Made by a program: the position numbers and the translations under genes. Source: an uncultured candidate division Zixibacteria bacterium (GTDB lineage: Bacteria > Zixibacteria > MSB-5A5 > GN15 > FEB-12). From it: a DNA stretch of 64,000 nucleotides. The stretch lies in assembly GCA_963806185.1 (NCBI GenBank), contig CAWDXE010000006.1, positions 128,001 to 192,000 on the forward strand, in the 5' to 3' direction. Shown one piece after another: positions 46,151-64,000 of the stretch (positions are counted from its first letter, which is position 1; each line of letters starts with the position of its first letter). Under the pieces are notes generated by a model. The model had not been told where the DNA came from and did not search any database. It worked only from the letters and a program-made list of their open reading frames with translations.

Positions 46151-46173
46151 TCCAAATCAACTCGTGCTGACTC

Positions 46174-47118
46174 TTACTTCATCAGAATCATCTTCTTGGT
46201 TTGGACGAAGCTCCCGGCTTCGAGCTTATAGAAGTAGACGCCCGACGCGAGAGCGGAGGCATTCCAGTCGGCCGAATAACGGCCGGCGGCCTTTTCCTCG
46301 TTCACCAAGGTGGCGACTTCCTGTCCGAGCAAGTTGTAGATCTTCAGAGAGACCTCCGACTTTACCGGGAGTTCGAAGTTAATCTGGGTCGCCGGGTTGA
46401 ACGGGTTAGGGTAGTTCTGCATCAGGGCGAACTCTTTGGGGAGACCGTCACCGGGAATAACGTTCACTCCCGTGCCTACCGGGCCAATGACAAAGCAGGC
46501 TCTGCCGGACCAGAGAGGCGTGGAGAAGTCGCCGGTATTGCCGCCGTAGAGCATGGACCATTTCCAAACGTTGGTCGGTGGGAATTTCATCGACGAATCG
46601 AGGCAAATCGTTTTGCCGATATCGGCGACTTTGGGTCGGATGCGGATCACGAAATGCCGCACGTCAGTCTGCGCGGGCAGGCCGAGTCCGATATCATTGC
46701 CGGCGCCGGAAAACGAGATTGTATCCGGCGAAATACCATCGGCGCGTACCGGAGAACCTGTTGGGGTGGAGAAAGTACGCAGTTGATAGACGGTCGGAAA
46801 GAGCGCCTTGGAGAGCAGACCGGTGGTGTCCATGCCGATTGGGCCGAGGTTGGAGCCGCGAAAGTTTCCGGGGCAGGAGTCGGTCCAGGTGGCGCCGTCG
46901 GGTGACGACAGGATGAACGCATTGGTAACGTTAAAGCCGGAATCAGACAGGTTGGTGTACCGGATATAGAATTTCACGGTATCGCCGGCTTTAATGGTAT
47001 CAGCAGTCGGTGAGCCCAGCCGATTGCCGACGCTATCGAGCGAAATTTGTGTGAGTGCGTAGGCTTGTCCGCACGACAGCGCAAGAAGTATGGTGAGAAA
47101 GACGATCAATCGCTTCAT
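46174..47118 (-). CDS. Secreted single-domain protein with T9SS type A-like C-terminal sorting domain
   Basis: AGGAG RBS; signal peptide; LPKEFALMQNYPNPFNP...IYNLLGQEV...LASGVYFYKL...KKMILMK. Confidence 0.85.
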   Translation of the reverse strand: MKRLIVFLTILLALSCGQAYALTQISLDSVGNRLGSPTADTIKAGDTVKFYIRYTNLSDSGFNVTNAFILSSPDGATWTDSCPGNFRGSNLGPIGMDTTGLLSKALFPTVYQLRTFSTPTGSPVRADGISPDTISFSGAGNDIGLGLPAQTDVRHFVIRIRPKVADIGKTICLDSSMKFPPTNVWKWSMLYGGNTGDFSTPLWSGRACFVIGPVGTGVNVIPGDGLPKEFALMQNYPNPFNPATQINFELPVKSEVSLKIYNLLGQEVATLVNEEKAAGRYSADWNASALASGVYFYKLEAGSFVQTKKMILMK

Positions 47119-47320
47119 TGGTATCTCCTAACAACTCAAGTAGTCACGTGATGTCAACAACCCTCATCACAATCCGCCGTGAGAATGGACTCTCGGAGCC
47201 CATCCTGGCGTCAACTGATCGAGCGATCAGTCCAGGAATAAACGTGATCAATTTACTGCCTTACAGACACCTCCCTGGTTTGGCCACACGGATGGCATGT
47301 TACGTCATGGTATTAACTTG

Positions 47321-47349
47321 AACATACTCCCTGACAAAATGCCAGTCAA
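47321..47349 (-). promoter_or_regulatory. Sigma70-type promoter
   Basis: TTGACT-17-TATGTT preceded by a T-tract, about 200 bp upstream of 47118. Confidence 0.5.
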
Positions 47350-47465
47350 TAAAAAAAAGGACTCGAAATCGGTCGACCGGTGACCCATGAGGCTCGGTGC
47401 AGTGCGACCGAGAAGGGTATGTGGATTATACACTTGAGTCGGGCCGGCGGAGTCAAAAACAGGAC

Positions 47466-47497
47466 AAAAAAACGGCCACTCCCGAGGGAGTGGCCGT
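47466..47497 (-). terminator. Rho-independent terminator
   Basis: acggccactcc-ctcg-ggagtggccgt followed by a T run on the minus strand. Confidence 0.88.
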
Positions 47498-47531
47498 CGC
47501 TTGCCCTACGGCAAACCAATCGAGCAGTTCA

Positions 47532-50500
47532 CTAGAGGTTCTGGCACGCCGGAAGCGGTGCGAACGTAATGAACAGGTTGTTGATCAGAGCCGTCAAGTC
47601 ACCTACGTCGACGCTGTTCAACGGATCGCCATCACAGTTGGCTTCCGCCGGGCAGTCAATCGCTTCAAAGGTGATAAACAGGTTGTTGATCAACTTGGTC
47701 AAGTCACCGACGTCAACGCCGTCAGTGATGTCACCATCAATATTACCCACGGTGGCAATACAGCAACCGGCGACCACGCAATTGTCGGTGAGGCCGCGCA
47801 GCTTACACAGATACCAATTCTTCGCGGCATCGAAGTTGGCCTCGAGATCAGTAAGCGTGCCCTGCTTCACGGAGAAGTAGCCGGTATAGACAACCAGCGT
47901 GTCGCTGGTGATCGTGGTGTTGCTCAGAACCGAAAGGACCATGTTATGGTCATCGGTGAAGCCCGTCGCGGCCAAGCCGGAGACGGTGTCACGATTCCAG
48001 TAATAGGCGCCTTCGTTGTCCTGCGACATGGTGTCATATTTGAACACCGAGTCGTTCAACTGAGCGTACATACCGTGCGGTACGTCGTGGTTGATCGTGC
48101 TGTCGGCCACGTCTTCGCTGCGTTTGAAGTAACCCATGAGCGCATGGGCGCCATAGCGCAGTGAATCCGGGCAGGTAAGCGTGGTGTCGGTGCCGCGCTG
48201 ATAGGTGAAGCCCTTCAGCGAGACGCCGGTCTTGTTGTCAGAACCACCGATACCCGGGACGTCCCAGTCGGCATGTTCGGCAATCGTCACACCGGAGACG
48301 GAACCGGCTTTCGGCCAGTACTTGGTCTCGGCAACGACGAAGTTGCAGTTACCGCTCAACGGGGCGTAATAGGTACGGCTCAGGACGATCGTGGTGTCAC
48401 GGTTGACCATCTTGCCCGTGTAGAACCAGTTGTAGTCGACTGTGCTGCCGGAGGCAGGGGTCGCACCATCAATGTTCTTAAAGGCCTGGTCGGTCGTGAA
48501 GTCACCCTGGAACAGGGCGGACGTGAAGACGTACGTGGAGGCACCGGTCTTCTTGATGACCTGCGGGCCGCCGCTATACAGGTACACGTCGTTGGCCGTC
48601 GTGTTCTCGCAGTCGCCGGCGAGGCCGACGAAGTCGAGGTTTACGCCACCGGCGCCGAGATTACCCATGTCACCGTTGGAAGAAACAACCAGGCGGGTGC
48701 AGGTCGTGGCGACCGTATCCCATACCAGGCCGACAACCGTATCGGCGACGAGGTAATTGACGATCGGAATGACCTTGACAGAGTCAAGCGTCGGCACGTT
48801 CGAGTGCAGAGTCACAGAGCCGTTGAGCGCCCAAACGTTACCGGTAGTGAAGAACGGCGTGGCAATGATATTGATGTTAAAGGAACCGAAAGAGGCTGCC
48901 GGTACGATCAGGGAAGGCGCGGACAGGGTGAGCCAATTTTCGGTAGCGTAGCTGGTCTTCGCAGCGACGATCGAGGCGACGTTGAGGACATCGTTACCCT
49001 GGTTGGTCACCGTAATCGTGTGAACGTTGGTGGCACCGTGGTTCACGAACATCGGATAGCCAAGCAAGGTCGGCGATATCTTGATACGCGGAGCCGAAAC
49101 CGGCGCGACGCACGCCAGGCGAGCATAGCGCAGCGGGTTCAGCGTCGGGACGAACGTCAACGACGCGTCCTGCAAATTGTACTGACCCGGATAGTGATCT
49201 TCCACATAGAACAGGTGGAGGGTCGAGTCGTTGGTAATGGTACCACCCAAAGTGAGCGGCGCTTCCGGCCAGGTCATGGCCACGCCGTACTGTGAGGAGT
49301 CCATACCATTGCGCGATACCGCCATCTTGACGTCGTTCATACAAACGCCGCCGCCGGTGGCCGAGTCGCAGTCCGGGGTATAGGTATTGGTGATGTTACG
49401 CGGGGCATCCCACAGGGCGCCGGCGAGGTCATTGGACACCGACATATAGACGTCGGCGTTCGCATAGAACCGCCAGTCGTTCGGAGCGCCACCCGAGGTG
49501 CAGTCGTCAGGCACAACCAGAGGGTTGTTCAGGTCGTTGGCCATTGACCAGAATACGTACAGCTTACCGGCGCATTCGGAGACCGACATGTAACCGGTAG
49601 TCAGGGCGTTGTAGCCGATCCAGCCGCACAGGTCGCCCGGAAGCAGGCTCTGATCCCACGTGGCATCATAAATCAAGCTGACAACGTTGGTCGACTTGGA
49701 CCAGTGGTACATGTTGGAACCGCGATAGAGCGAGTTCCAGGAGAAGCCGGTGGTATACGGATTGGCATCGACGTTGGCCGCATTGAAGGCCGCGTGCAAA
49801 ACGCCGTTGTGATCGTAGACTGCCTGGGCCTCAACCCACGGAGAGTACGACGCCACCGAGCGATCGGACGAAGTGATCTGAGTCCGAGGACCCCAGTTCA
49901 AGCCGCCGTCGGTCGATTCGCGATAGAACAGAGCTTCGTCGTTTTCTTCACCGTGCAGATAGCCGCCGTCAGTCGTGCGGGTATACACAACCGCGATGTT
50001 GCTGTTCACGCGTGAAGCAGCCAGGTTGATCTGGTTAAAAACGGTATCCAGAAGTTTCGGACCAACCCAGGTACCGGCGGCCGTCTGGCCGAGCTTGCGG
50101 TAATACAGCATCGGGAAGTCAGACAGGTTGCTCGGATTGCCGGTCGTGCGGGCAAGAAGAGCGTTCCAGCGAGCCGCAACGTGCAGCACGGTGTCGGTAC
50201 CGATGATCTGTGTTTCAACAATCGGGACAACCAATTCCGGAGCGGTGTCACCAGGATTAGCACGCCAGGTGCTGTAGCCGTTGACGCCGAGTTTCGGAAT
50301 CTTCGTTCCCGTGCCCCAGGTGCAGGAATAGGCGGCACCTGAAGCCGGCTGGTAATAGAAGTGGTTGTCGGTCTGAGCCGCCGGGTCGGCACCGGCCAGG
50401 ATGACGCGGCCCTTGGGGGTCACCGCCATCGAGGTGATGATGCCAAAGTCGCCGGCTGCCTGAACTTCGCAACCAACGCCCAGCAGTTTCGGCCAGCTGG

Positions 50501-50933
50501 CGAGCGTGGGGCTATACACGTTATAGCCGGCGCGTTCTTCAGCGGTGGTCGAGTTGGGCTGATCCTGATAAACGAAGTGCATATCCGGAGTGCCCCAGAA
50601 ATCCGCGCGACGGCCGCGGGGTGAACCCTGCCAGTCGTCGTAAGAAGCTTCAACTTCGATACCCGGGCCCGCGGTGGCCGCGTTGTCGCCGGCGGCGCCG
50701 ACGGAGACGCGACGCGAAGCTCTGGCTTCGTTCGGGCCCATCAGGCCGGCAAAACGATCGGTAACATTTTCAGTCGGCCGATCAGCGCGCGGGAAACTGA
50801 GTTGCTGAATCTTCGCTGCCCGTTCGTCCTGAACACGCTGGGTGTCCCAGGAGGCGCGAGCGAACGCGAACGACGTCAGCAGCAGAGCCGCGAGCACCGA
50901 GACGACGAGAATTGTCACAAGGCGCTTAGTCAT
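47532..50933 (-). CDS. Large secreted protein: Asp-box propeller-like region, Ig-like domain, C-terminal Cys-capped dockerin-like domain
   Basis: Signal peptide from ATG 50933; RESTDGGLNW Asp-box; TVTNQG..L.V Ig strand; GCC..GNIDG..DVGDLTKLINNLFITF..C..ANCDG..DVGDLTALINNLFITF..C. Confidence 0.8.
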   Translation of the reverse strand: MTKRLVTILVVSVLAALLLTSFAFARASWDTQRVQDERAAKIQQLSFPRADRPTENVTDRFAGLMGPNEARASRRVSVGAAGDNAATAGPGIEVEASYDDWQGSPRGRRADFWGTPDMHFVYQDQPNSTTAEERAGYNVYSPTLASWPKLLGVGCEVQAAGDFGIITSMAVTPKGRVILAGADPAAQTDNHFYYQPASGAAYSCTWGTGTKIPKLGVNGYSTWRANPGDTAPELVVPIVETQIIGTDTVLHVAARWNALLARTTGNPSNLSDFPMLYYRKLGQTAAGTWVGPKLLDTVFNQINLAASRVNSNIAVVYTRTTDGGYLHGEENDEALFYRESTDGGLNWGPRTQITSSDRSVASYSPWVEAQAVYDHNGVLHAAFNAANVDANPYTTGFSWNSLYRGSNMYHWSKSTNVVSLIYDATWDQSLLPGDLCGWIGYNALTTGYMSVSECAGKLYVFWSMANDLNNPLVVPDDCTSGGAPNDWRFYANADVYMSVSNDLAGALWDAPRNITNTYTPDCDSATGGGVCMNDVKMAVSRNGMDSSQYGVAMTWPEAPLTLGGTITNDSTLHLFYVEDHYPGQYNLQDASLTFVPTLNPLRYARLACVAPVSAPRIKISPTLLGYPMFVNHGATNVHTITVTNQGNDVLNVASIVAAKTSYATENWLTLSAPSLIVPAASFGSFNINIIATPFFTTGNVWALNGSVTLHSNVPTLDSVKVIPIVNYLVADTVVGLVWDTVATTCTRLVVSSNGDMGNLGAGGVNLDFVGLAGDCENTTANDVYLYSGGPQVIKKTGASTYVFTSALFQGDFTTDQAFKNIDGATPASGSTVDYNWFYTGKMVNRDTTIVLSRTYYAPLSGNCNFVVAETKYWPKAGSVSGVTIAEHADWDVPGIGGSDNKTGVSLKGFTYQRGTDTTLTCPDSLRYGAHALMGYFKRSEDVADSTINHDVPHGMYAQLNDSVFKYDTMSQDNEGAYYWNRDTVSGLAATGFTDDHNMVLSVLSNTTITSDTLVVYTGYFSVKQGTLTDLEANFDAAKNWYLCKLRGLTDNCVVAGCCIATVGNIDGDITDGVDVGDLTKLINNLFITFEAIDCPAEANCDGDPLNSVDVGDLTALINNLFITFAPLPACQNL

Positions 50934-51327: not shown

Positions 51328-51356
51328 AAATTATTGCGAGACGGCGATGTTGTCAA
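51328..51356 (-). promoter_or_regulatory. Candidate sigma70 promoter giving a leader of about 390 nt
   Basis: TTGACA-17-TAATTT downstream of the terminator at 51459. Confidence 0.45.
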
Positions 51357-51458: not shown

Positions 51459-51488
51459 AAAAAAAGCCGCTCAGCAGTGAACGGCTTT
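51459..51488 (-). terminator. Rho-independent terminator
   Basis: aaagccgttca-ctgc-tgagcggcttt followed by a T run on the minus strand. Confidence 0.8.
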
Positions 51489-51514
51489 CATACGAAATGA
51501 AGATAGATTTCGAA

Positions 51515-54500
51515 TTATCTCGGCGGCTGAGGGCCGTTAAAATACAGGAAGTTAATCAGGTAGGTCACATCGAGAATGTTCACACTACCGTCATTGTCGA
51601 CGTCTGCAGCCACCATAGTTACCGGTTCCGGGCCTTGGCGGAAGAGATAGGAGATCAGATAGGCCATGTCGTTCATGGTGTAGCGACTGTTATTGTCAAT
51701 ATCGCCCCGGAGGAAGGCAACCACACGGATAACGGTGGTGGCGGTATCGGCCAAGCCGCCCGGGTCGGTGGCGATGATCCGGATTTGCGAGACCAGGCCG
51801 ATCTGAGCATTGTCCGGCAAGAAGATATAGTTACCCGTACCATTAAGCGAATCCACGAATCCCGCATTAGTGACAATGGGCGTAGCGGTCATGGTGAGTG
51901 TCTGCAGGTCCGGATCTGCGGCCCGAGCAACCACATTGGTGATCACATTGGCCGGACAGTTGGTAGTGTCAGCCAAGACGGTCGAGAAGACTGGAGCCTG
52001 ATTGCCGGCCTCGGTCACGTCGATCTGGATTATGGCGGTATCGCGTGCGGCCTTGGAGTCAACCGCAATGAAGCGTACCGTGTAAATACCTGCCTGACTA
52101 AAGGTTGGCGTAAAGGAGAAGGTCTTAACGTTGGTCGTCCCCACAAACGTGGCGCCGACCGGCATGTTCTGTGCGGACAGCGTCGGCAAGGTGGCACCAC
52201 CATCAGGATCGGTGGCAGAGACCACGAAGCTGAGGGTGACCCCTTCAGCGATGGTCTTGGTACCTTCGCCGCCGGCAACCGTGACAATGGGGAGGGCGTT
52301 GCGATCGAGCACCGCTATCTGTACCGGTGCGAGCGCATCTTGTACGATGGACGAATCGGCGCCGTCTTTGGCGTAAAAGCGGACGTAGTAGAAGGTTCCC
52401 GGAGATACCGCACCCTGCGAGTAGCTTGGTATGAACCTGAGCAGGGCGGAACCATTGCCCGAATCGGCAATCGACATGTTGGTCGCGAGGGAGTCGGTGA
52501 CCCCATCAAGGCGCGCCCGGATTTTCGGAATCGTACCGTCGAAATCAAAGGCGTTCACGAGGTAGATCAAGGTGTCGCCTTCGAACATGGTGCGGGCTCC
52601 ATAGGTGATGATCACCGGAGCCCGATTGGTGTCGAGCACCGAGATATTGACCAGCTGCGAATCGGCGACGCCGGCAACGTCGAAGTCCTCCGCCTTGAAA
52701 AAGACCTGATAGAAGCCGGAGTCGGTATCGGTCGGCGCCCAACTGAAGGTGCCGGTACCATTGCGATTATCCGTAAACGTCGCACCCGCAGGAAGCGGGT
52801 TGGCGGTGAGTAACGGATAGTTGGTGGCATCGACGTCGGTCGCGGAGATGTTGAAGTTCAGCGCGTTCAATTCTCTCACGCTCTTGTCAGTAATGTTGGC
52901 AAGCACCGGCGGTTGATTGCCGGCCTCGACGATGGTAAGGACGATGTCGATGGTATCGGCGACGGTGCCGTCGGTAGCGCGAATTGTGATGGTGTACGAG
53001 CCGGCTTGGAGGTAATTGGGGGCCATGTAGAAGGTTCCCAGACCGTTGCCGCTATCCGCAAAAGTAATGAGGGCGGCCGGGACGATCTCAAGCAGAGACA
53101 TCGTGACCGTACCACCATCGGGATCGTGCACTTTGATACGGAAGAGACCGGTTTGACCTTCGGTGATGGCCGGGCTGGCCGGGATGGAGTCAAACACGGG
53201 TGTCTGGTTGCCGGCTTCGATCACCTGAATAAAAACCACTTCTTTGTCGACCGCGAAGCCGTCGTACGCCTCAAAGGTGACAGCGTAGAGTCCGGCCTGT
53301 GTGAACGACGGATTAAAGGTGAAGACAGCCGTGCCATTGAGGTTGTCCACGAACGTAGCATTGGCCGGGAGCGCGCCGGTGCGCAGCACGGGAGCGCCGT
53401 CGTCCGGATCGCTTCCGGAGACATTGACGACGAGCGACTGACCCTCGGTAACGGCTTTCGTGCCGATGGCCGCGAGCACAGGCGGGAGGTTCACCGTCTT
53501 CACCACGACGTTGATCGCTATGAGAGTGGACTTGGACGGAACGCCCTGGTCGACGGCAAGGAAGTTGACGACGTTGGTCCCCGCCTGCCCGGCGGTAGGC
53601 GTAAAGCGGAAGGTGCCGGTATTGTCACCGTTATCGGTAAACGTGGCGCCCGTCGGCATGTTGACGGCCGAGAGGAATATCCGATTGCCGGCCACGGCAT
53701 CGGTGGAATCGTACGCCGTGAGCGTGAAGACCAACGGGTCGTTGACTTTCACGCCGAACGGTCCGGCCGCGGCGAACGTCGGCGGCCGATTGACATCGTT
53801 GGTAGTAACCTGCACGATTTCGACACCGGTCTGAATCGGCGTGCCGTAATCGATGGCGAAGAAGCGCACGGTATCGATGCCGGCATCGAAGTAGCCCGGC
53901 TTATACGTGAGGGTACCCGTGCCATCGTTATGATCAACAAACGTATAGTGCAGAAGGGTGGTGGACACCGACAATCTCGGGGCCACGGTCGGTGCGTCGG
54001 GATCGGAGGCGCTGACATTGAGGATGAGTGAGTCGCCTTCGTTGACAAGCGTATCGGCCACGACCGTAAAGATCGGCGGAACGTTACCGGACGGGAAGAT
54101 GGTGATCTGCACCAGTTCCGAATCGGCGAGGACACCGTCGGTCGCGACGAACGTAAGCAGGAACGAACCCTCCTGATTGAAATCAGGTGAGAAAACAAAC
54201 GTCGCAGTACCGTTGCCATTATTGGTGAAAGTGGCGTTGGTCGGCAGTGGCGACGCCGAGAAGGTCGGCAGGGTGCCGTCCGGATCAGCGGCAGTCACGT
54301 TAAACGTCAGCAGTCCGCCTTCGACCCCTGCTCGGTTGCCGATAAGGGCGAGGACAGGACGTTGATTGCCGGCCTCGGCCACGGTGATAACCACAATCTC
54401 GGAATCGATATCAGCCGGGTACTGACCGTCGGTCGCATAGAAAGTTACGTTGTAGACGCCGGCCTGAGTGAAGCCGGGGGTCCAGCTGAGCGTACCGGTA

Positions 54501-57500
54501 CCATTGAGATGGTCGGCGAAGTTCGCTCCGCTTGGTCGGGTTGACGTAGACAGGACGGGCATGACGCCATCCTGATCGGCCGCAGTGATGTCGAAACTAA
54601 GCGCCGCGCCTTCGGTGGTAGTGTACGGACCGATGGGGAAGAGAACCGGTAAACGGTTAGTATTGAGCACGGTGACATTTACCACAATGCTGTCGGCGCC
54701 GAGACTGGCGTCGGTGGCAATAAAGCGAATCGGATACAGTCCCGCTTGAGTGAAATCCGGTGAGAAGGTGAAAGTGCCGGTGCCATTGCCATTGTCGACG
54801 AAGGCGACATTAGTGGGGCTGTTCTCGATCGTGAGTGAAGGAATACCGCCGTCGGGATCAGTCGCGGAGACTGAGAAACTGAGCACTGCACCCTCGGCGA
54901 TACTGGTGTCGGCGCGGGTGGCGAACACCGGCGGCTGATTGCCGGCCTCGAGCACCGTGATGACCACGTCTTCCGAGTCGGCGGTTATGCCGTCGGAGGC
55001 GTAGAATCGGACCGTATGGAATCCGGCTTGCGTAAAGTTGGGTGTCCAGGAGAAGGAACCCGTACCATTACCGTTATCGGTGTAGACCGCGCCGGCCGGC
55101 AGCGTGCTGGTGGTCAGCGTCGGAGTCGTACCGTCGGGATCGCTCGCCGACGTGGAAAACGTCAGAAGCGTGTTCTCAGTAGTTGACTGGGCGCCGATAG
55201 CCGCCAGCACCGGATTCCGATTCAGATCGGTAACCGTGATGGTGATTGTTTCAGAATCGGCGGCGAGTCCGGCATCAGTAGCGATGAAGGTGACGGTGTA
55301 AACGCCGGCTTGCGTAAAGTCGGGATTGAAGGCGAATGAGCCGGTGCCGTCGCCATTGTCGACAAAGCCCGCATTGGCGGGAAGGGTTGAGGTCGTGAGC
55401 GTGAGCGGCGTCAATTCCGGATCGGCAGCGCTGACGGCGAAGTTCAAGGCCACATTCTCGCTGACCGTCTGATTACCAATCGCGGCCAGAATCGGCGCCT
55501 GGTTGCCGGCGTCGAGGACACTGATGGCGACCACCTCAGAATCGGTTGCCACACCATCGGAGGCATAGAAGGTCACGGAGTAGCCGCCGGACTGCGTGAA
55601 GTCAGGCGTCCAGTTGAAGGTGCCGGTACCGTCACCGTTGTCTATGAAAGTGGCGCCGGTGGGCACGGCCGTTGAGGTCAGGGTCGGAATAACGCCGTCG
55701 GCATCGGCGGCAGTGATCGTGAAGGCAAGATTGACGCCTTCATTGATCGCCTTGCCGCCAATCGCAGCCAGGACCGGCAGCTGATTGGTGTTCGACACGG
55801 TAATGGCGACCACCTCGGAATCCGTCACGGTGCCGTCTGAAGCGTAGAAGGTGACCGAGTATCCCCCGGCCTGAGTGAAGCCGGGCGTCCAGTTGAACGT
55901 CCCGGTGCCATTGGCGTTATCGATGAAAGTTGCGCCGGTCGGCAACGCGCTGGTCGTGAGGACCGGTGAATTGCCGTCAGGATCGTTGGCTGATACGCCG
56001 AAGTTCAAATTGGTGTTCTCGCTGATCGACTGTGCGCCGATAGCCGCAAGGATAGGGTCCTGATTCACGTTGTTGACCGTGATAGCGACAACTTCGGAGT
56101 CAGTAGCGATACCGTCACTAGCGTAGAACGTGACACTGTATCCGCCCGCCTGTGCGAAGGTCGGCGTCCAGTTGAACGTCCCGGTGCCGTTGGCGTTGTC
56201 AATAAACGATGCGCCACTGGGCAGGGCACTCGTGGTCAGGGTCGGCGTAGTGGCGTCGGCATCAGAGGCTGAGACACCAAAGTTCAGATTAACGTTTTCA
56301 TTTACACTCTTCGCACCGATGGCGGCCAGGATAGGCGCCAGATTAGTGGTGGAGATGGTGATCGCGACCACTTCGGAATCGGTAGCCGTACCGTCAGTCG
56401 CATAGAACGTGACACTGTACCCGCCCGCCTGGGTAAAGTCGGGGGTCCAGGTGAACGTGCCGGTACCGTTGGCGTTGTCGACAAAGCCCGCGCCGGTCGG
56501 CAGAGCTGACGTGGTAAGCGTAGGCGTAGTGCCGTCAGCATCGGAAGCAGTGATACCAAAGGTCAGAAGGGCACCCTCGACACCACCCTTGGCGCCGATG
56601 GCAGCCAGGATTGGATCCTGGTTTACGTTATTGACGGTGATCGCGACTATCTCAGAGTCGGTGGCGATGCCGTCAGAAGCGTAGAAAGTCACGTTAAATG
56701 AGCCGGACTGCGCAAAGGTCGGCGTCCAGTTAAACGTACCGGTGCCGTTGGCGTTATCGACAAACGATGCGCCGCTCGGGAGAGCGCTGGTGGTTAGGGT
56801 CGGTGTCGTTGCATCCGGATCGGAGGCTGACACGCCAAAATTCAGATTGACGTTTTCATTCACGTTTTTCGCGCCGATCGCCGCCAGAACAGGGTCGAGA
56901 TTGGTACCGGCGATAGTGATGGTGACGACTTCTGAGTCGGTAGCGACACCATCGGTAGCGCGGAAGGTAACCGGGTAGACGCCGGACTGCGTGAAGTCGG
57001 GTGTCCAGCTGAAGGTGCCGGTACCGTTGCCGTTGTCTAAGAAAGCGGCGCCGGTGGGCAGAGTTGACGTTGTGAAGGACGGCGTCGTGCCGTCGGCATC
57101 GGCGGCAGTGACGCCGAAGGTCAGGAGGGCGCCTTCCAGACCGCCCTTGGCACCTATCGCCGCAAGGACGGGGTCTTGATTGACGTTGTTCACCGTGATG
57201 GCGACAACTTCAGAATCGGTAGCCGTGCCGTCGGTGGCACGGAAGGTGACGTTGAACGAACCGGCCTGTGCGAAAGTGGGCGTCCAGTTAAACGTCCCGG
57301 TGCCGTTGCCGTTATCGATGAAAGTTGCGCCGGACGGCAGAGTGGATGTAGTAAACGACGGGGTCGTGCCGTCGGCGTCCGCAGCGGTGACGTTGAAATT
57401 CAGATTCACGTTTTCGTTGATGTTCTGTGCGCCGATAGCCGCAAGGATAGGATCCTGATTCACGTTGTTGACCGTGATAGCGACAACTTCGGAGTCAGTA

Positions 57501-60500
57501 GCGATACCGTCACTAGCGTAGAACGTGACACTGTATCCGCCCGCCTGTGCGAAGGTCGGCGTCCAGTTGAACGTCCCGGTGCCGTTGGCGTTGTCAATAA
57601 ACGATGCGCCACTGGGCAGGGCACTCGTGGTCAGGGTCGGCGTAGTGGCGTCGGCATCAGAGGCTGAGACACCAAAGTTCAGATTAACGTTTTCATTTAC
57701 ACTCTTCGCACCGATGGCGGCCAGGATAGGCGCCAGATTAGTGGTAGAGATGGTGATCGCGACCACTTCGGAATCGGTAGCCGTACCGTCAGTCGCATAG
57801 AACGTGACACTGTACCCGCCCGCCTGGGTAAAGTCGGGGGTCCAGGTGAACGTGCCGGTACCGTTGGCGTTGTCGACAAAGCCCGCGCCGGTCGGCAGAG
57901 CTGACGTGGTAAGCGTAGGCGTAGTGCCGTCAGCATCGGAAGCCGTGATACCGAAGGTCAGAAGGGCGCCCTCGACACCACCCTTGGCGCCAATAGCGGC
58001 AAGGATAGGATCCTGATTCACGTTGTTGACGGTGATAGCGACTACTTCGGAGTCGGTCGCGGTACCGTCGGAAGCGTAAAAGGTCACGCTATACGGTCCG
58101 GACTGCGCAAAGGTGGGCGTCCAGTTGAACGTACCGGTGCCGTTGGCGTTATCGACAAACGATGCGCCGCTCGGGAGAGCGCTGGTGGTTAGCGTCGGTG
58201 TCGTTGCATCCGGATCCGAAGCCGACACGCCGAAATTCAGATTGACGTTTTCATTCACGTTTTTTGCACCGATGGCGGCCAAGACTGGGTCCTGGTTAAC
58301 GTTGTTGACGGTGATGGCGACTACCTCGGAGTCGGTCACGGTACCGTCGGTGGCGTAGAAGGTCACGTTGTATGGTCCAGCCTGAGCTAAGGTCGGCGTC
58401 CAGTTGAAGGTACCAGTGCCGTTGGCATTGTCGGTGAAGCCGGCACCGGTCGGCAGAGCCGATGTAGTCAAAGTGGGCGTCGTAGCATCCGGATCGGAGG
58501 CGGACACGCCAAAATTCAGATTGGCATTTTCGTTGACTGACTTGGCACCAATGGCGGCCAGGACGGGCGCCTGATTGGTACCGGAGATTGTGATGCTGAC
58601 GACTTCAGAATCGGTGGCAACACCGTCGGTACCGCGGAACGTGACGGAGTACCCGCCGGCTTGTGTGAAGTCCGGCGTCCAGCTAAATGTCGCCGTGCCG
58701 TTGGCATTATCAATATACGTCGCGCCGGTCGGCAGAGTTGAACTGGTGAAGCTGGGCGTCGTGCCGTCGGGGTCGGAAGCGGACGTGACGAACGTCAGCA
58801 GACTTCCTTCAGCCCCATTCTTCGCACCGATGGCGGCCAGGACGGGGTCCTGGTTCACGTTGTTCACCGTGATCGCGACTACTTCAGAGTCGGTCGCGGT
58901 ACCGTCAGAGGCATAGAAGGTCACGCTATACGGCCCGGCCTGAGCGAAGGTCGGCGTCCAGTTGAAGGTACCAGTGCCATTGCCGTTGTCGGTGAAGCCG
59001 GCACCGGTGGGCAGAGCTGAGGTCGTAAGTGAAGGTGTAGTGGCGTCGGCATCGGCGGCCGAGACGCCGAAGTTCAGGTTGACGTTTTCATTCACACTCT
59101 GGGCCCCGATGGCGGCCAGCACAGGTGCTTGATTGCTACCGGAGATGGTAATGGCGACTACTTCGGAGTCGGTAGCCGTACCATCAGTCGCATAGAAGGT
59201 CACGCTGTACCCGCCCGCTTGCGTGAAGTCGGGAGTCCAGTTGAAGGTACCAGTGCCATTGCCGTTGTCGACAAAGCCCGCGCCGGTCGGCAGAGCTGAC
59301 GTGGTAAGCGTAGGCGTAGTGCCGTCAGCATCGGAAGCAGTGATACCGAAAGTCAGAAGGGCACCCTCGGCACCACCCTTGGCACCGATGGCCGCAAGGA
59401 TAGGATCCTGGTTCACGTTGTTCACCGTGATGGCGACGACTTCGGAATCGGTAGCCGTACCGTCAGTCGCGTAGAAGGTCACGCTGAACCCGCCCGCCTG
59501 CGCAAAAGTCGGCGTCCAGTTGAAGGTACCAGTGCCATTGCCGTTGTCGGTGAAGCCGGCACCGGTGGGCAGAGCTGACGTGGTCAAAGTGGGCGTGGTA
59601 GCATCCGGATCGGAAGCGGTCACGCCGAAATTCAACGCGACGTTTTCATTGACGTTCTGCGCGCCGATGGCGGCCAATATCGGGTCTTGATTTACGTTGT
59701 TCACCGTGATGGCGACGACTTCGGAATCGGTAGCCGTACCGTCAGAAGCGTAAAATGTTACGCTATAGGGACCAGCCTGAGCAAAGGTCGGTGTCCAGTT
59801 GAAGGTGCCAGTGCCATTGCCGTTGTCGGTGAAGCCCGCGCCGGTGGGCAGAGCTGACGTGGTCAAAGTGGGCGTGGTTGCGTCCGGATCGGAAGCCGAC
59901 ACACCAAAATTCAGATTAACATTTTCGTTGACCGACTTGGCACCGATGGCGGCCAGGACGGGGTCTTGATTGACGTTGTTCACTGTGATGGCGACGACTT
60001 CGGAGTCGGTAGCCGTACCATCAGTCGCATAGAAGGTCACGCTGTACCCGCCCGCTTGCGTGAAGTCGGGAGTCCAGTTAAAGGTACCAGTGCCATTGCC
60101 GTTGTCGGTGAAGCCGGCACCGGTGGGCAGAGCTGACGTGGTCAATGTCGGTGTGGTTGCGTCCGGATCGGAAGCCGACACACCAAAATTCAGCGCGACG
60201 TTTTCATTGACGTTCTGCGCACCGATGGCGGCCAGGATTGGGTCCTGGTTCACGTTGTTCACGGTGATAGCGACGGTCTCCGAGTCGGCGTCACTTGTCA
60301 CCGGATCAAGGGCGATAAAAATGACATTCACGATACCGGCCTGCGTAAAGTCAGGCGTAAACGTGAGTGTCCCGGTGCCATCGCCGTGATCGACCCACGA
60401 CGCGTTGGCCGGCAGGGGGCCGGTCTGCATGATGGGTGTTGTGGCGTCGACGTCGGTTGCCGTGTCGGCCACGGTGAGGGTCAACCCTTCGTTGATCGAC

Positions 60501-60616
60501 TGTGGGCCGATCGGGTTGAGCACGGGAGGAGCGGTTTGCGCTCCCGCAGTCATCGCGAACGCCGCGACGATCAGAAGTACCAGCAAACTCAAGCGTGTAT
60601 TCATAAGGTAAGTCAT
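51515..60616 (-). CDS. Giant secreted protein, 31 tandem Ig/cadherin-like repeats (about 93 aa) with C-terminal dockerin-like domain
   Basis: Signal peptide; 31 counted N.xPVL..IG...DPD...DNGNGTGTFNWTP.F.QAG.Y.VTF.A.DG...DSE repeats; end GDIDNN....NDMAYLISYLF..GP.P..ADVDNDGSVNILDVTYLINFLY; GGAGG RBS. Confidence 0.92.
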   Translation of the reverse strand: MTYLMNTRLSLLVLLIVAAFAMTAGAQTAPPVLNPIGPQSINEGLTLTVADTATDVDATTPIMQTGPLPANASWVDHGDGTGTLTFTPDFTQAGIVNVIFIALDPVTSDADSETVAITVNNVNQDPILAAIGAQNVNENVALNFGVSASDPDATTPTLTTSALPTGAGFTDNGNGTGTFNWTPDFTQAGGYSVTFYATDGTATDSEVVAITVNNVNQDPVLAAIGAKSVNENVNLNFGVSASDPDATTPTLTTSALPTGAGFTDNGNGTGTFNWTPTFAQAGPYSVTFYASDGTATDSEVVAITVNNVNQDPILAAIGAQNVNENVALNFGVTASDPDATTPTLTTSALPTGAGFTDNGNGTGTFNWTPTFAQAGGFSVTFYATDGTATDSEVVAITVNNVNQDPILAAIGAKGGAEGALLTFGITASDADGTTPTLTTSALPTGAGFVDNGNGTGTFNWTPDFTQAGGYSVTFYATDGTATDSEVVAITISGSNQAPVLAAIGAQSVNENVNLNFGVSAADADATTPSLTTSALPTGAGFTDNGNGTGTFNWTPTFAQAGPYSVTFYASDGTATDSEVVAITVNNVNQDPVLAAIGAKNGAEGSLLTFVTSASDPDGTTPSFTSSTLPTGATYIDNANGTATFSWTPDFTQAGGYSVTFRGTDGVATDSEVVSITISGTNQAPVLAAIGAKSVNENANLNFGVSASDPDATTPTLTTSALPTGAGFTDNANGTGTFNWTPTLAQAGPYNVTFYATDGTVTDSEVVAITVNNVNQDPVLAAIGAKNVNENVNLNFGVSASDPDATTPTLTTSALPSGASFVDNANGTGTFNWTPTFAQSGPYSVTFYASDGTATDSEVVAITVNNVNQDPILAAIGAKGGVEGALLTFGITASDADGTTPTLTTSALPTGAGFVDNANGTGTFTWTPDFTQAGGYSVTFYATDGTATDSEVVAITISTTNLAPILAAIGAKSVNENVNLNFGVSASDADATTPTLTTSALPSGASFIDNANGTGTFNWTPTFAQAGGYSVTFYASDGIATDSEVVAITVNNVNQDPILAAIGAQNINENVNLNFNVTAADADGTTPSFTTSTLPSGATFIDNGNGTGTFNWTPTFAQAGSFNVTFRATDGTATDSEVVAITVNNVNQDPVLAAIGAKGGLEGALLTFGVTAADADGTTPSFTTSTLPTGAAFLDNGNGTGTFSWTPDFTQSGVYPVTFRATDGVATDSEVVTITIAGTNLDPVLAAIGAKNVNENVNLNFGVSASDPDATTPTLTTSALPSGASFVDNANGTGTFNWTPTFAQSGSFNVTFYASDGIATDSEIVAITVNNVNQDPILAAIGAKGGVEGALLTFGITASDADGTTPTLTTSALPTGAGFVDNANGTGTFTWTPDFTQAGGYSVTFYATDGTATDSEVVAITISTTNLAPILAAIGAKSVNENVNLNFGVSASDADATTPTLTTSALPSGASFIDNANGTGTFNWTPTFAQAGGYSVTFYASDGIATDSEVVAITVNNVNQDPILAAIGAQSISENTNLNFGVSANDPDGNSPVLTTSALPTGATFIDNANGTGTFNWTPGFTQAGGYSVTFYASDGTVTDSEVVAITVSNTNQLPVLAAIGGKAINEGVNLAFTITAADADGVIPTLTSTAVPTGATFIDNGDGTGTFNWTPDFTQSGGYSVTFYASDGVATDSEVVAISVLDAGNQAPILAAIGNQTVSENVALNFAVSAADPELTPLTLTTSTLPANAGFVDNGDGTGSFAFNPDFTQAGVYTVTFIATDAGLAADSETITITVTDLNRNPVLAAIGAQSTTENTLLTFSTSASDPDGTTPTLTTSTLPAGAVYTDNGNGTGSFSWTPNFTQAGFHTVRFYASDGITADSEDVVITVLEAGNQPPVFATRADTSIAEGAVLSFSVSATDPDGGIPSLTIENSPTNVAFVDNGNGTGTFTFSPDFTQAGLYPIRFIATDASLGADSIVVNVTVLNTNRLPVLFPIGPYTTTEGAALSFDITAADQDGVMPVLSTSTRPSGANFADHLNGTGTLSWTPGFTQAGVYNVTFYATDGQYPADIDSEIVVITVAEAGNQRPVLALIGNRAGVEGGLLTFNVTAADPDGTLPTFSASPLPTNATFTNNGNGTATFVFSPDFNQEGSFLLTFVATDGVLADSELVQITIFPSGNVPPIFTVVADTLVNEGDSLILNVSASDPDAPTVAPRLSVSTTLLHYTFVDHNDGTGTLTYKPGYFDAGIDTVRFFAIDYGTPIQTGVEIVQVTTNDVNRPPTFAAAGPFGVKVNDPLVFTLTAYDSTDAVAGNRIFLSAVNMPTGATFTDNGDNTGTFRFTPTAGQAGTNVVNFLAVDQGVPSKSTLIAINVVVKTVNLPPVLAAIGTKAVTEGQSLVVNVSGSDPDDGAPVLRTGALPANATFVDNLNGTAVFTFNPSFTQAGLYAVTFEAYDGFAVDKEVVFIQVIEAGNQTPVFDSIPASPAITEGQTGLFRIKVHDPDGGTVTMSLLEIVPAALITFADSGNGLGTFYMAPNYLQAGSYTITIRATDGTVADTIDIVLTIVEAGNQPPVLANITDKSVRELNALNFNISATDVDATNYPLLTANPLPAGATFTDNRNGTGTFSWAPTDTDSGFYQVFFKAEDFDVAGVADSQLVNISVLDTNRAPVIITYGARTMFEGDTLIYLVNAFDFDGTIPKIRARLDGVTDSLATNMSIADSGNGSALLRFIPSYSQGAVSPGTFYYVRFYAKDGADSSIVQDALAPVQIAVLDRNALPIVTVAGGEGTKTIAEGVTLSFVVSATDPDGGATLPTLSAQNMPVGATFVGTTNVKTFSFTPTFSQAGIYTVRFIAVDSKAARDTAIIQIDVTEAGNQAPVFSTVLADTTNCPANVITNVVARAADPDLQTLTMTATPIVTNAGFVDSLNGTGNYIFLPDNAQIGLVSQIRIIATDPGGLADTATTVIRVVAFLRGDIDNNSRYTMNDMAYLISYLFRQGPEPVTMVAADVDNDGSVNILDVTYLINFLYFNGPQPPR

Positions 60617-60628
60617 CCTCCCAGTCCT

Positions 60629-63410
60629 CTATTTCAGGAAAAGCATCTTCTTAGTTTGGTTGTCGTCACCAACCTGCAAGCGGTACAGATAAAGCCCGGT
60701 GGCGACCCGACGCCCGGCGTCGGAAGTAGCATCCCAGGAAACCTTATAATCGCCCGGCGCGCGGGTGTCGTCAACGAGCGTTTTCACATGTTGGCCCAGG
60801 ACGTTGAATATTTCGAGCTTCGTCTTTTTGAAAGCCTCGTTCGATACCGGCACCGAGAATTCAATAATGGTGGTCGGATTAAACGGATTGGGGTAGTTCT
60901 GGCGAAGCAGGAAGCTGATCGGGAGCACCGGATCGACGCCCTTGGACGGTGATGGAGCCGGCCGTGGCAGTCGACAGGAGCGCTTGGGTCAGGCGGATGG
61001 CAGAGCGGTCGCCGGCGCGAAAGTCCTTTTTCGCGGTCATCGGGATTTCGACCAGATCGGCCAGTCCGGGCTGTAGTAACTCATTGTAGCGGAACGGCTT
61101 CATGTGGTAAATGAGCACCTTCATGCGGCCGCCGCCGTTGTCTTTATAGTTGATGGTGAATTTCTCGTTAAATGCCGTGAGCTTGGGAGCACCGAGCGTC
61201 ACGGTTTCGGGATCATACTCAACCTCGAGCTGAACCCCGGCTACCTGATCGGGCAATTCGGAGCGAACTGCCATGGTCTCGGAGGAGCCGGACGAAAGAT
61301 CGTCGTAGGCCAGTGACATAACGGCCACGTCGGTCGGGCTCGGCTGCGGCGGTGCCGGATTGATCGGCAGGCCGTAGATCAGATTGATGTCGGCCACGAG
61401 GTCGAAGACGTCGATGTTCGAATCAACAATGATATCGGCAGTACGGAACTGACGGAAAGTGAGGTCGAAGGTCGCGATGATCTTGGCGACGATGTTCACC
61501 AGATCGGCGACGTCAATGAACTTATCGAGGTTAACGTCGCCCGGGTTGTCGCACTCGACGACGCCGGAGTCGGTGACCAGCTCGACCGATCCGAAATTCG
61601 GATTGGGGTTGATCGAACCGCGTCCGTTCTTGAGGCCGAGCCAGTAGGTGGTCCACGGCACGGCGCTGGAATCGAGCGTCAGCCAGGCGTACATCACGGC
61701 CGTGCCGGAGGCGGAATCGACGCCGACCGGTTCATTGTTGAGGCCGAACGACAGCACCCGAACTTCACCGGGGGTGACGCCCAGATTGTCGTACACAATG
61801 TACTCAGGCACGCGGCCGCTCACGGTAAAGGAATCGACGCTCACTTGCTGATACGGCCAGGCCAGGTCAAACTGGATGCCGTAGAATGTTTTGTCAGTGA
61901 CCAGGTTGATGGGCCATTTGACTTCCGGCGTGCCGCGCAGTCCGCCGACCGGCTTCTGGCCGGGGGCGGAAACTGAGAAGAGGCGATCGCGGGCAGTCTG
62001 GTTAACAATGACGGTAACCGAACGTGTCGCGGTACTGGTCGTGGTCGCCTGGAAGGTCAGGGCAAAAGTGCCGGACTGATTGAAGTCAGGCGTGAAGCTG
62101 CAGGTACCGGTTACCTGAGTTGTGCCGACCACCGGATTTGTTGGTGAAAAATTGGCGTTATTCGGCGGCGAAACCATCGACAAGGTGATACTCTGCCCGG
62201 ATGAACCGGCCGTTCCTATTACCGAGAACGAGACCGTCTGGCCTTGATCGATGGTATAGCTGACATCGGTCGGGTTGAAGGAGATTGACGGTCCGCCCGG
62301 AGTCACACCGCTGATGGTCACCTGGGCCTGGTCGGTGGCGGTCTTGGTCGCCTTATAGGCAGTGATAGTGAAAGTCGTGGTGGTCGTGATTTGAGGCGAC
62401 GTAGTACTACCGGTTAAGGCAGTAAACTTGGGTCGATATGAAGCAAATTGCGGCGATGTTATCACTACCGAGTCTATATTCGTCGCCACCCATTGGAGGG
62501 ATGTCGTGCCATTAGAGGCCACCTCGCTCGGATTGGCGATGAGGTCGACGGTCGGGTCGGGGACGTCGACATAGGCGGTGTCAACTTTGAAGCCGCCGTT
62601 GATTTGCGTCGGCCAGACCTGATAGGAAGTGGCGACATACTGGGTGTCGACCACCAGAGGCGAGAGGCTGGTTGTGTCCTCGATAAATGTCAGCGAATCG
62701 AACCAGAGGGTACTTAGCTGAGAGCGACGGCAGCCGACAATGACCGTGTCCAAAATACCGTCAGCGGGGTGATTTGTGTCGGCCACATAGAATTCGTTAG
62801 CCTGATAGAACGTAATAGCGGTAGCCGCATTGTGGAAGACCTTGCCGGCGTGACCCAATTCCTTGACTTTGAACTTCACCGAAAACAGGTTATCAGAACC
62901 TCCGGGCAGACTGTCGATCTTGCCGAAGGGGAGGAAGTTACAGGCGATAACGTCCTTCATACCTTGATAATCGGAGATAACGAGATTGTAGAAGGTGTCG
63001 ATGGAAATCGGAAAGCCGAAATCATCGAGCACAGAATCAATGGTTTTCGGAAAGCGAGCCGACGTGACGGTGTAGTCGACGAAGTTGGAGTCGATCTCCC
63101 ATTCCAAACAGGCGTTGGTGAGTGGATCCTTGTTGATACACACCGAATCCTTCTTGTATGCCGGTGTGAGAAACGCCGTGTCGAACTTCACGAGGACCTG
63201 AAATCCGGCCGTCACCGAATCAGCATCGTAGAAGATCGGCATGCGAGCGGTATCGCCCGGCTTTCCAAGGAACGGGACGACTTTGACGAAGTCGTTCGGG
63301 CTGGGCGTAATACTGCCGCAGCCCAACTGCGCCTGTACCCCCGAGGCCCAGAGGACCAGAACCATCAGAAGAAACAGCGGAATTTTCATCAATCTCATGG
63401 TCACCCTCAT
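60629..63410 (-). CDS. Scaffoldin-like protein: three cohesin-like domains, Ig repeats, internal dockerin, FlgD-Ig/T9SS-type C-terminal domain (+1 frameshift near 60940)
   Basis: GKPGDTARMPI..AGFQVLVKFD; V.WPINL..YGIQFDL.W; VAGVQLEVEYDP; PGDVNLDKFIDVADLV..ADI..D.NIDVFDLV. Removing one base joins VQGVDPVLPISFLLRQNYPNPFNP...KKMLFLK. Confidence 0.8.
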
Positions 63411-63449
63411 CTATTCTCAGCAGAACTTTGCTATGATAAACTCCTGTCC

Positions 63450-63998
63450 CTACTTCACCATCGCCATCTTGCGCGTGAGTGAGACGCCGGTTGCTTCCAA
63501 TCGATACAGATAGATTCCCGAGGCGGCGGCATTGCCGCGGCTGTCATGGCCGTCCCAGCGGATCGTGTGCGTGCCCGCCGGAAGGTCGTTGTCAACAAGT
63601 GTCCGGACCTCCTGCCCGAGAAGATTGTAGATAGCCAGACGAGTGTGTCCGGCTGCCGGCAGGGCGAATTCTATCTGAGTTTCCGGGTTAAACGGATTCG
63701 GATAATTCTGGCTCAGCGCATACTCGGAGGGGAGCGACGCCGCGTCGGACGGCTTTGTCACCGAGACGTACTGACCATCAGCCGAGGCCAGATCGGCGAT
63801 CTGCACCCGGCTGGTGGTCAAGTTTCGTATCGCAAAGAGATCAGAGCGGCCGGCGGAGATTGTCTCACCGGACAGGGAGTACAGCAGCACGTTGACTGTG
63901 TGATCATCAATGAAGGTCACCATGGTCATCTGCGGCTGCAGATTCTCGACGTCGTCAAGCGCGACGGCGCGATCGATTTCGAGGGAGAGAAACAGGCC
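63450..63998 (-). CDS. C-terminal part of a secreted protein with FlgD-Ig/T9SS-type sorting domain (5' end outside window)
   Basis: Frame is open to the window edge; LPSEYALSQNYPNPFNP..IYNLLGQEV..WDG...ASGIYLYRL..RKMAMVK. Confidence 0.85.
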   Translation of the reverse strand, partial: GLFLSLEIDRAVALDDVENLQPQMTMVTFIDDHTVNVLLYSLSGETISAGRSDLFAIRNLTTSRVQIADLASADGQYVSVTKPSDAASLPSEYALSQNYPNPFNPETQIEFALPAAGHTRLAIYNLLGQEVRTLVDNDLPAGTHTIRWDGHDSRGNAAASGIYLYRLEATGVSLTRKMAMVK

Positions 63999-64000
63999 GC

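Follow-up and report, generated by a model that had tools for sequence, protein, structure and literature searches.

A putative non-cellulosomal cohesin-dockerin surface system conserved across the phylum Zixibacteria

We hypothesize that a gene cluster of an uncultured Zixibacteria bacterium is the core of a phylum-wide, non-cellulosomal cohesin-dockerin surface system, in which scaffoldins with sorting tails, served by SprA/PorV and PorU of a type IX secretion system (T9SS), would bind dockerin proteins in a Ca-dependent manner; from the sequence evidence we put the probability of this reading at roughly 60%. The cluster occupies positions 46174 to 64000 of a stretch of 64,000 nucleotides (herein the window, meaning the whole of the DNA analyzed), where the list of open reading frames (ORFs) gives five co-oriented genes, all on the minus strand, as an earlier reading made from the letters alone (herein the sequence-only reading) had described. 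The gaps that it gave between the first three genes, 39 bp (63450 to 63410) and 12 bp (60629 to 60616), are both confirmed. The features are:

63450 to 64000, minus strand: scaffoldin A (gene 1), 3' end, with a type A sorting domain at 63453-63722
60629 to 63410, minus strand: scaffoldin B (gene 2), with signal peptide, cohesin 1, two Ig-like domains, cohesin 2, internal dockerin, cohesin 3 and type A sorting domain
62574 to 63326, minus strand: B cohesin 1, divergent and with insertions (Z 14.4 vs 4n2o)
62001 to 62567, minus strand: two Ig/PKD-like spacer domains of B, from the predicted model
61542 to 61994, minus strand: B cohesin 2, predicted type-I-like fold (Z 16.2 vs 6kgc)
61359 to 61547, minus strand: B internal dockerin-like module, a sequence class of its own
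60933 to 61328, minus strand: B cohesin 3 (Z 11.8 vs 5k39), whose best match is a type II cohesin
60939 to 60945, minus strand: +1 frameshift that cuts the sorting tail off from the B frame, likely an assembly indel
60629 to 60928, minus strand: type A sorting domain of B (NYPNPFNP), read in the shifted frame
51515 to 60616, minus strand: stalk protein C (gene 3), 3033 aa, with signal peptide, 31 Ig-like repeats, a C-terminal dockerin at 51518-51715 and no sorting tail
51462 to 51489, minus strand: terminator-like hairpin 3' of gene C
47532 to 50933, minus strand: gene D (gene 4), about 1133 aa, secreted, with a C-terminal dockerin of the major class at 47541-47756
47471 to 47498, minus strand: terminator-like hairpin 3' of gene D
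46174 to 47118, minus strand: gene E (gene 5), 314 aa, with signal peptide, cohesin-like domain (46468-47052) and type A sorting domain (46186-46413)
46124 to 46153, minus strand: terminator-like hairpin 3' of gene E

Terminator-like hairpins number eight in the sequence against 5.4 +/- 2.4 in shuffles. One follows each of genes 3, 4 and 5, which makes a shared operon of all five improbable; gaps of 414-581 bp also count against it, and it was rejected.

All three cohesin-like segments that the sequence-only reading saw in scaffoldin B are predicted to adopt the nine-stranded beta-sandwich of cohesin type. When the predicted model was compared with the PDB, residues 469-619 matched the solved cohesin 6kgc (Z 16.2, rmsd 2.0, 133 aligned), residues 25-275 matched 4n2o (Z 14.4, rmsd 2.9, 155 aligned) and residues 691-822 matched 5k39 (Z 11.8, rmsd 2.6, 125 aligned), the best non-cohesin row standing at Z 10.3; a Foldseek search with all 839 residues of the model brought up nothing but long multi-Ig chains and was not informative. 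The Pfam scan gave no cohesin match to the B copy of the window, and a profile of cohesin 2 matched solved cohesin sequences weakly (E 0.09-0.7); both results weigh against our model. Mean identity among homologues is 29% for cohesin 1, 55% for cohesin 2 (the most conserved cohesin) and 63% for the internal dockerin. Polar residues of cohesin 2 (Y506, G507, Q509, D511, N538 and consensus E594) are highly conserved, and the strands that carry them are presumably the dockerin-binding face. The internal dockerin attributed to B stands in part: the alignment retains its duplicated motif in 22 homologues, several orthologues have a precomputed PF00404 match, but the module of the window copy has low pLDDT and no Pfam match. 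No carbohydrate-binding module (CBM) family matched B or A in the Pfam scan, which remote CBMs could escape.

The NYPNPFNP sorting domain ascribed to B is likewise present in the sequence but separated from the gene in the assembly, where the B ORF stops at 60879 and a +1 shift near 60940-60945 puts the tail out of frame. We consider this likely to be an assembly error, because all 22 aligned homologues are single ORFs with the tail and three more shifts occur in gene 1; signal peptide and C-terminal TIGR04183 domain share one ORF in all 22 homologues, whereas B and A of the window are frameshifted. A programmed or phase-variable frameshift was judged unlikely, given the lack of a repeat tract at the site, the intact homologues and the further shifts in A (three) and in a Z paralogue (two). 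In a read check of four public sequencing runs the site was covered by one contig of depth 3, which carries an insertion there, and this cover does not settle the cause. The public runs for this genome hold small shares of its DNA only, and no RNA run is listed.

Gene 1 does carry the type A sorting domain by which the sequence-only reading defined it (above the TIGR04183 cut-off, as in gene 5) but is also a scaffoldin. It runs on for about 2 kb beyond the end of the window, where it encodes two cohesins (one match of 30.4 bits, above the cut-off, the other of 22.9 bits, below it), Ig repeats and an internal dockerin; it has three frameshifts in this assembly and intact orthologues in relatives. 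The rule that proteins here, the scaffoldin excepted, bear a dockerin or a sorting domain and never both fails for gene A, which has an internal dockerin and a tail. The stalk is as described, with exactly 31 Ig-like repeats of about 93 aa each and a Pfam dockerin of 31.8 bits (cut-off 22.9). Gene D ends in a dockerin, but the propeller assigned to it is unproven: its fold matched nothing in Pfam, NCBIfam or PDB, and the signs of a propeller are one Asp-box motif and a lead-level BNR look-alike at 0.84 in the Atlas, where it also matches unnamed clusters at 0.89-0.90. It belongs to an unnamed family with several paralogues. Of the 18 other genomes that have a match, five, which all fall into the same family of bacteria, carry a homologue on the strand of B, 10-25 kb downstream of it. 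Gene E, described as a small sorting-domain protein, indeed combines a signal peptide and C-terminal TIGR04183 domain in one ORF, but its model adds a divergent cohesin-like domain (nine top structure rows are cohesins; best Z 9.7, rmsd 2.9, 135 aligned; pLDDT 65, weaker than B). We regard it as a candidate one-socket anchor or carrier.

Scaffoldin B was found in 86 of 101 Zixibacteria genomes (E<=1e-60), with a single match in 84 of these, and is near-core and nearly always single-copy in the phylum. Among 20 loci picked from the 86 genomes for spread and long contigs, a Z gene lies upstream of B in all 20, a stalk gene directly after B in 19 (in the other the contig ends) and an A-type gene between Z and B in 12. 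This conserved Z-(A)-B-stalk cluster spans the phylum, and in one genome A-B-stalk is duplicated as a unit (locus L060). Z, A and B have a common tail order of cohesin, internal dockerin, further beta domain and sorting tail. Stalks in relatives reach 40 or more repeats; dockerins were not detected on the first stalks of L062, L066, L067, L068 and L081, an observation that, like the lack of a tail on B as assembled, counts against our model. These data bear on another reading, a structural coat: an S-layer-like mesh or tether in which cohesin-dockerin pairing serves mainly to link Z, A, B and the stalk to each other, or takes place in cis within one chain, and enzyme display is secondary. B is distributed like a structural gene, the shared domain order and long stalks would suit a mesh, and ten dockerin-bearing segments of the genome also have a cohesin-like domain, which would allow head-to-tail chains. 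Many cohesin-like domains directly adjoin a dockerin in the same chain, which would also fit cis pairing and likewise speaks against our model. We nevertheless hold a coat to be unlikely, since about 90 unrelated proteins, including eight peptidases and a five-heme cytochrome, bear a terminal dockerin that would be needless for a pure mesh.

The bacterium's own genome encodes 101 dockerin domains in 93 segments (a PF00404 search gives 19 matches in the genome), and terminal-type matches occur in 41 of 41 genomes, from 9 to at least 149 in each. With a best E of 1.5e-8, the terminal-dockerin profile matches 27 solved sequences, of which almost every one is a cellulosomal dockerin. Three classes (terminal, B-internal and Z/A-internal) are separated with tree supports of 100/97, 98/77 and 97/88, from 72 columns and with groups assigned by best profile, which makes the result partly circular. 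By a crude heuristic, signal-peptide-like starts occur in 72 of 90 dockerin segments versus 352 of 985 control segments. Of the 93 dockerin proteins, 49 were scanned with Pfam, yielding eight peptidases (three S8, and one each of M6, M64, C10, M1 and M43) and no glycoside hydrolase; further tagged cargo includes lectin-like and repeat proteins and the multiheme (five-heme) cytochrome. The lack of a cellulase that the sequence-only reading noted for the window extends to the genome: GH9 was not found in the 82%-complete assembly (positive control detected), GH48 was found in 0 of 41 genomes by a search in which its positive control was not detected either, and the sole GH5 is in neither the dockerin nor the sorting-tail set. 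Of the marks of a cellulosome, a several-cohesin scaffoldin and many dockerin proteins are present, whereas dockerin-bearing cellulases (GH48, GH9, GH5) were not found.

The placement of the dockerins raises the question of whether the tag is read by a cohesin at all. Within 15 residues of the stop in 88 of 93 segments and accompanied by a sorting tail in only one of 93, it could itself be a sorting signal recognized by another partner, such as a PorV-family barrel, the cohesin-fold domains being spacers or lectin-like. Close paralogues can end in either tag (gene E in a tail, three C3 proteins in a dockerin, at 54-59% identity), at least four PorV-family genes score over the family cut-off, and the 101 dockerin domains far exceed the cohesin-like domains (22 segments plus the B and Z type). 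We find this quite improbable, however: dockerins usually outnumber cohesins in cellulosomes as well, the two modules share genes and also share the conserved cluster, and conservation of B cohesin 2 is concentrated in its polar strand residues.

The sequence-only reading had named homologues of PorV, PorU and SprA as machinery to look for in the genome, and these are present. SprA scores 542 bits in the bacterium's own genome (cut-off 200) and is over the cut-off in 101 of 101 genomes; PorU scores 654 (cut-off 420), is over the cut-off in 41 of 41 genomes, adjoins a PorV-family gene in the own genome and holds a His and a Cys in the expected motifs, which we take to be catalytic. Four PorV-family proteins are over the family cut-off in the own genome, with the strict PorV equivalog under its cut-off, and 46 type A tails match; no PorP/SprF carrier was over the cut-off there, and PilQ is the best-scoring family for both secretins, whose GspD scores fall below the cut-off. 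The motor genes were looked for in 101 genomes (GldM), 61 genomes (GldN) and 41 genomes (GldL) and found in none, in searches where no positive control was detected. A T9SS without a detectable GldL/M/N motor, and dockerin-only proteins without an evident way across the outer membrane, are two points that the sequence-only reading missed. Both count against our model: in Flavobacterium the Gld motor is required for substrate release from SprA, according to the available part of PMC10994853, and the dockerin-only proteins, including the 3033-aa stalk, have neither tail nor recognized export route. Complexes might instead form and be released to the medium or retained in the periplasm, with a motor-less translocon or an anchoring that differs from Bacteroidota; the undetected motor and a PorZ-like protein well under its cut-off (103 vs 260) would agree with this, but the presence of PorU in every genome searched, beside a PorV-family gene in this one, leads us to think it very unlikely.

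The preferred reading, a surface assembly on tailed scaffoldins, would work as follows. Sec would carry all parts into the periplasm, from which Z, A, B and the small proteins with cohesin and tail, gene E among them, would be taken to the exterior by virtue of their tails, on a T9SS-type SprA/PorV route. In Bacteroidota, PorU replaces the sorting tail by a lipid anchor, and PorU would probably do so here at the surface. Terminal dockerins would then plug peptidases, lectin-like and repeat proteins, the multiheme cytochrome and the 31-repeat stalk into cohesins in a Ca-dependent manner (B cohesin 2 being the likeliest socket for the stalk), and internal dockerins would join scaffoldins to one another in tiers. 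Rather than a cellulase machine, the cell would have a general surface display that can be reconfigured and that serves to scavenge proteins and to adhere. A more speculative proposal, which we regard as doubtful, is that the C-terminal dockerin is an indirect signal for export and anchoring, such that cargo binds cohesin-plus-tail carriers (B, A, E and small ones) in the periplasm and rides through the SprA of a GldLM-less T9SS. The near-exclusive terminal dockerins, the tag-swapping paralogues, the lack of a clear T2SS secretin and the undetected motor genes would fit it.

Multi-scaffoldin cellulosomes are known from C. thermocellum (CipA/OlpA/SdbA), A. cellulolyticus (ScaA-ScaB-ScaC) and R. 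flavefaciens (ScaA/B/C/E). The putative Zixibacteria system resembles clostridial and ruminococcal cellulosomes in cohesin fold, duplicated dockerin motif, several dockerin classes, two-module adaptors and one-cohesin anchors; in contrast, those systems have Gram-positive SLH or sortase anchoring, a cellulose-binding scaffoldin and GH48/GH9 cargo, none of which was found here, where the parts must also cross an outer membrane. With the T9SS of Bacteroidota, as covered by the available parts of PMC10994853 and PMC12635249 (the latter with no statement found there on distribution outside Bacteroidota), it shares SprA, PorV-family carriers, PorU, a PorZ-like protein and type A tails, and differs in the Gld and PorP/SprF components, which the searches described above did not detect.

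A CTD-bearing scaffoldin has already been proposed in silico for Ca. Stygibacter (Cloacimonadota), another diderm of an uncultured phylum, with tandem cohesins, a C-terminal surface-attachment domain and signal-peptide proteins ending in dockerins (Williams et al. 2021; PMC8542988). In the accessible text, a single genus has one scaffoldin of 3,755 aa that contains CBMs, and four enzymes are named (S8, C25, GH18, GH57), whereas Zixibacteria have short scaffoldins without detected CBM, internal dockerins of separate classes, a multi-gene cluster phylum-wide and dockerin proteins that number tens to >100 per genome and of which those scanned include no glycoside hydrolase. The planctosome of Nemodlikiaceae (Planctomycetes), hypothesized to be a non-cellulosomal complex for peptide degradation (Andrei et al. 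2019; PMC6461901), likewise has an adaptor with both dockerin and cohesin but, in the portion seen, a lamin-tail domain as proposed anchor, no T9SS tail and few components. The mucinolysome (PMC12997984) and amylosome (PMC4611034) are also aimed at substrates other than cellulose, yet their accessible accounts concern gut anaerobes with carbohydrate-active cargo. We found no literature linking Zixibacteria with dockerins or on a motor-less T9SS in the phylum, in a search that was judged from listings and left most subscription papers outside.

If our reading is correct, cohesin-dockerin assembly would belong to the core envelope of an entire diderm phylum, on the scale of the richest cellulosomes but directed at proteins, adhesion and possibly electron transfer. 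It would offer new, probably orthogonal cohesin-dockerin pairs, testable as small recombinant domains, and it raises the questions of how a SprA, PorV and PorU translocon works without a recognizable GldLM motor and by what route tail-less dockerin proteins reach the surface. Were export indirect, two known machines would be joined in a new secretion logic, with some ninety cargo proteins in each genome, among them a multiheme cytochrome and a stalk of 3000 residues.

The five co-oriented genes claimed in the sequence-only reading are present as described, on the minus strand, including the tight packing of the first three: scaffoldin B (gene B) starts 39 bp past scaffoldin A (gene A), and the stalk gene (gene C) lies 12 bp beyond the end of the B sorting tail at position 60629. 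As assembled, B runs into a stop at 60879, while its tail (NYPNPFNP), a type A sorting domain, lies in a different frame that reaches 60629; all 22 aligned homologues (from 25 found, three partial hits being excluded) are single open reading frames that include the tail. Since there are three frameshifts in gene A and two in a paralogue of gene Z (a further scaffoldin-type gene upstream of A, outside the window), an indel-prone assembly is the likely cause of the break in B. In this assembly, which is 3.65 Mb long and 82% complete, the window corresponds to G000:C6:128001-192000.

Scaffoldin B was modelled with AlphaFold (mean pLDDT 71, pTM 0.34), and the model was aligned structurally against 48,161 solved chains. 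The top 20 rows were all cohesins, spread over three separate segments, so that each of the segments previously called cohesin-like has a predicted structure that aligns with solved cohesins:

Cohesin matches on the predicted model of scaffoldin B (minus strand)
Residues 25-275: cohesin match, Z 14.4
Residues 469-619: cohesin match, Z 16.2
Residues 691-822: match to a type II cohesin, Z 11.8

Recognition of the dockerins by a receptor other than a cohesin appears quite improbable. The internal dockerin-like module is more strongly conserved than any other part of B (63%), but the model renders it poorly and Pfam gives no match for it in this genome's copy. Residue 594 (window about 61617) is Gly, the aligned position being Glu in 94% of 32 rows for cohesin 2, and may be either a real variant or a further sequencing error.

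Upstream of the window, the rest of gene A encodes cohesins together with an internal dockerin. Gene Z encodes 881 aa, in which an internal dockerin and a tail accompany two further domains, one E-like and one cohesin-like. Gene C does encode the proposed dockerin-tipped stalk, with 31 repeats and a Pfam dockerin match. For the secreted protein of gene D, described earlier as a dockerin-tipped propeller, a C-terminal dockerin of the major class was recovered and the propeller fold is unproven. The N-terminal domain of gene E, the small tail protein, folds like a divergent cohesin in a model of modest quality (nine best structural rows all cohesins, top Z 9.7, followed by non-cohesin rows at 8.8). 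Terminator-like hairpins lie 3' of genes C, D and E. Of the two downstream neighbours, one (window 43781-45964) resembles glycoside hydrolases, lacks a signal peptide and scores far below the cut-off of the exo-beta-glucosaminidase model; the other (window 42037-43815) is a gamma-glutamyltransferase. Neither carries a tag or has an evident link to the locus.

Scaffoldin B has a match in 86 of 101 genomes, as a single match in 84 of these. Among 20 loci chosen for spread and size of contig, Z lies upstream of B in all 20, and in 19 the gene after B encodes a repeat stalk; between Z and B there is an A-type gene in 12, small cohesin-tail genes instead in two and none seen in six. Two additional loci share the order Z-A-B-stalk, and in one relative (L060, G089:C1:1037000-1056900) the A-B-stalk block is tandemly duplicated as a unit. 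Gene D is a family-level accessory, matched in 18 of 40 other genomes; five of these have it downstream of B at a distance of 10-25 kb. A mainly structural mesh, or pairing in cis, is a rival reading of the system that we consider unlikely.

By an iterated profile, 93 reading-frame segments of this genome carry dockerin-like domains, 101 in all; 88 of the segments place the dockerin within 15 residues of the stop. TIGR04183 gave 46 matches, and our own tail profile 54 segments, some of them false (e.g., FlgD). All 41 genomes searched have terminal-type dockerins (from 9 to at least 149 matches per genome); in this one they coincide with a tail in only one segment. That segment, L018:788-5680 (G000:C7:811787-816679, +), encodes an S8 peptidase in which four terminal-type dockerins lie internally; a cohesin-like stretch is present too, along with the sorting tail. 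A separate internal dockerin type occurs in eight segments, with the tail in frame in six and frameshifted in two. Terminal, B-internal and Z/A-internal dockerins form separate groups on a tree of 75 rows and 72 columns, a separation that is partly circular because the groups were assigned by profile.

A Pfam scan of 49 of the 93 dockerin proteins returned eight peptidases, FG-GAP and SBBP repeats, C-type lectin, beta-helix and one CBM9, but no glycoside hydrolase; many had no match. The scanned proteins also include one cytochrome-like secreted protein, at L037:183-1706 (G000:C7:792682-794205, -): it has five CxxCH heme motifs, ends in a dockerin of the major class and, as a multiheme cytochrome, could dock on the scaffold. 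The window holds three further dockerin proteins (3570-9238 and 16141-18417). Two are peptidases, of families M6 and S8, each with the dockerin at the C-terminus; the third, of 758 aa, has its dockerin at the N-terminus and gave no Pfam match. Either tag can stand at the end of paralogues: the domain of gene E recurs, at 54-59% identity, in three dockerin-tipped proteins of contig C3. Four tandem genes at L026 (G000:C3:28660-34841, +) are candidate adaptors: there the E-type cohesin-like domain is combined with two Ig-like domains, with a dockerin taking the place of the tail. Small one-cohesin proteins with tails elsewhere in the genome (L007:4279-5259, L008:799-1635, L010:809-1630) are candidate anchors or carriers.

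On the export side, the SprA translocon of type IX secretion (T9SS) scores over cut-off in this genome (G000:C4:96261-102383) and in 101 of 101 genomes, and the PorU sortase is found in 41 of 41; PorU and PorV-family genes lie here at C4:246618-252650, four PorV-family proteins exceed the family cut-off; the score of a PorZ-like protein is under its own. GldM was matched in 0 of 101 genomes, GldN in 0 of 61 and GldL in 0 of 41, and since control genomes gave no match either, these motor and ring components are to be read as not found rather than absent. An outer-membrane half without GldL/M/N matches could represent a motor-less or differently powered T9SS; in Flavobacterium, according to one study, release of substrate-carrier complexes from SprA requires the motor (PMC10994853). 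A bolder reading, that dockerin proteins ride piggyback through a motor-less T9SS, is doubtful. Two secretins score under the GspD cut-off, with PilQ as best score, and the second secretin cluster could be a divergent T2SS. Two loci are possible dedicated carrier cassettes: L023 (G000:C4:218200-224729), with a TonB-dependent receptor, a divergent-tail protein and a PorV-family barrel side by side, and L022 (C4:81889-86486), where two PorV-family barrels come after a protein with a divergent tail. Release of the complexes, or their retention in the periplasm, seems quite unlikely.

The analysis shows which modules are present, how they are conserved and which machinery genes exist, while the folds are predictions. 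As the most likely mechanism (probability about 0.6) we infer that tail-bearing cohesin proteins would be exported and anchored, that the anchored proteins would bind and capture dockerin-tipped cargo, and that internal dockerins would arrange the scaffoldins in a hierarchy of tiers. Domain labels for such proteins already exist in databases. Most named records of scaffoldin relatives are labelled Zixiibacteriota, Zixibacteria or GN15, and one Acidobacteriota; on that ground the genomes searched are taken here as Zixibacteria. We found no published account of a Zixibacteria cohesin-dockerin system in the open-access literature. Related proposals are an in-silico system of tandem-cohesin scaffoldin, C-terminal anchoring domain and dockerin enzymes in Ca. 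Stygibacter (PMC8542988) and a planctosome for peptide degradation in Planctomycetes (PMC6461901). The Zixibacteria system would work like a multi-scaffoldin cellulosome, yet it is not one, because no tagged cellulase was found, in keeping with the earlier remark that none is linked to it in the window. What our own tests add is a predicted third cohesin in B, a cohesin-like fold in the small tail protein, three dockerin classes, the swapping of tags among paralogues and a pattern of SprA and PorU without a detected motor.
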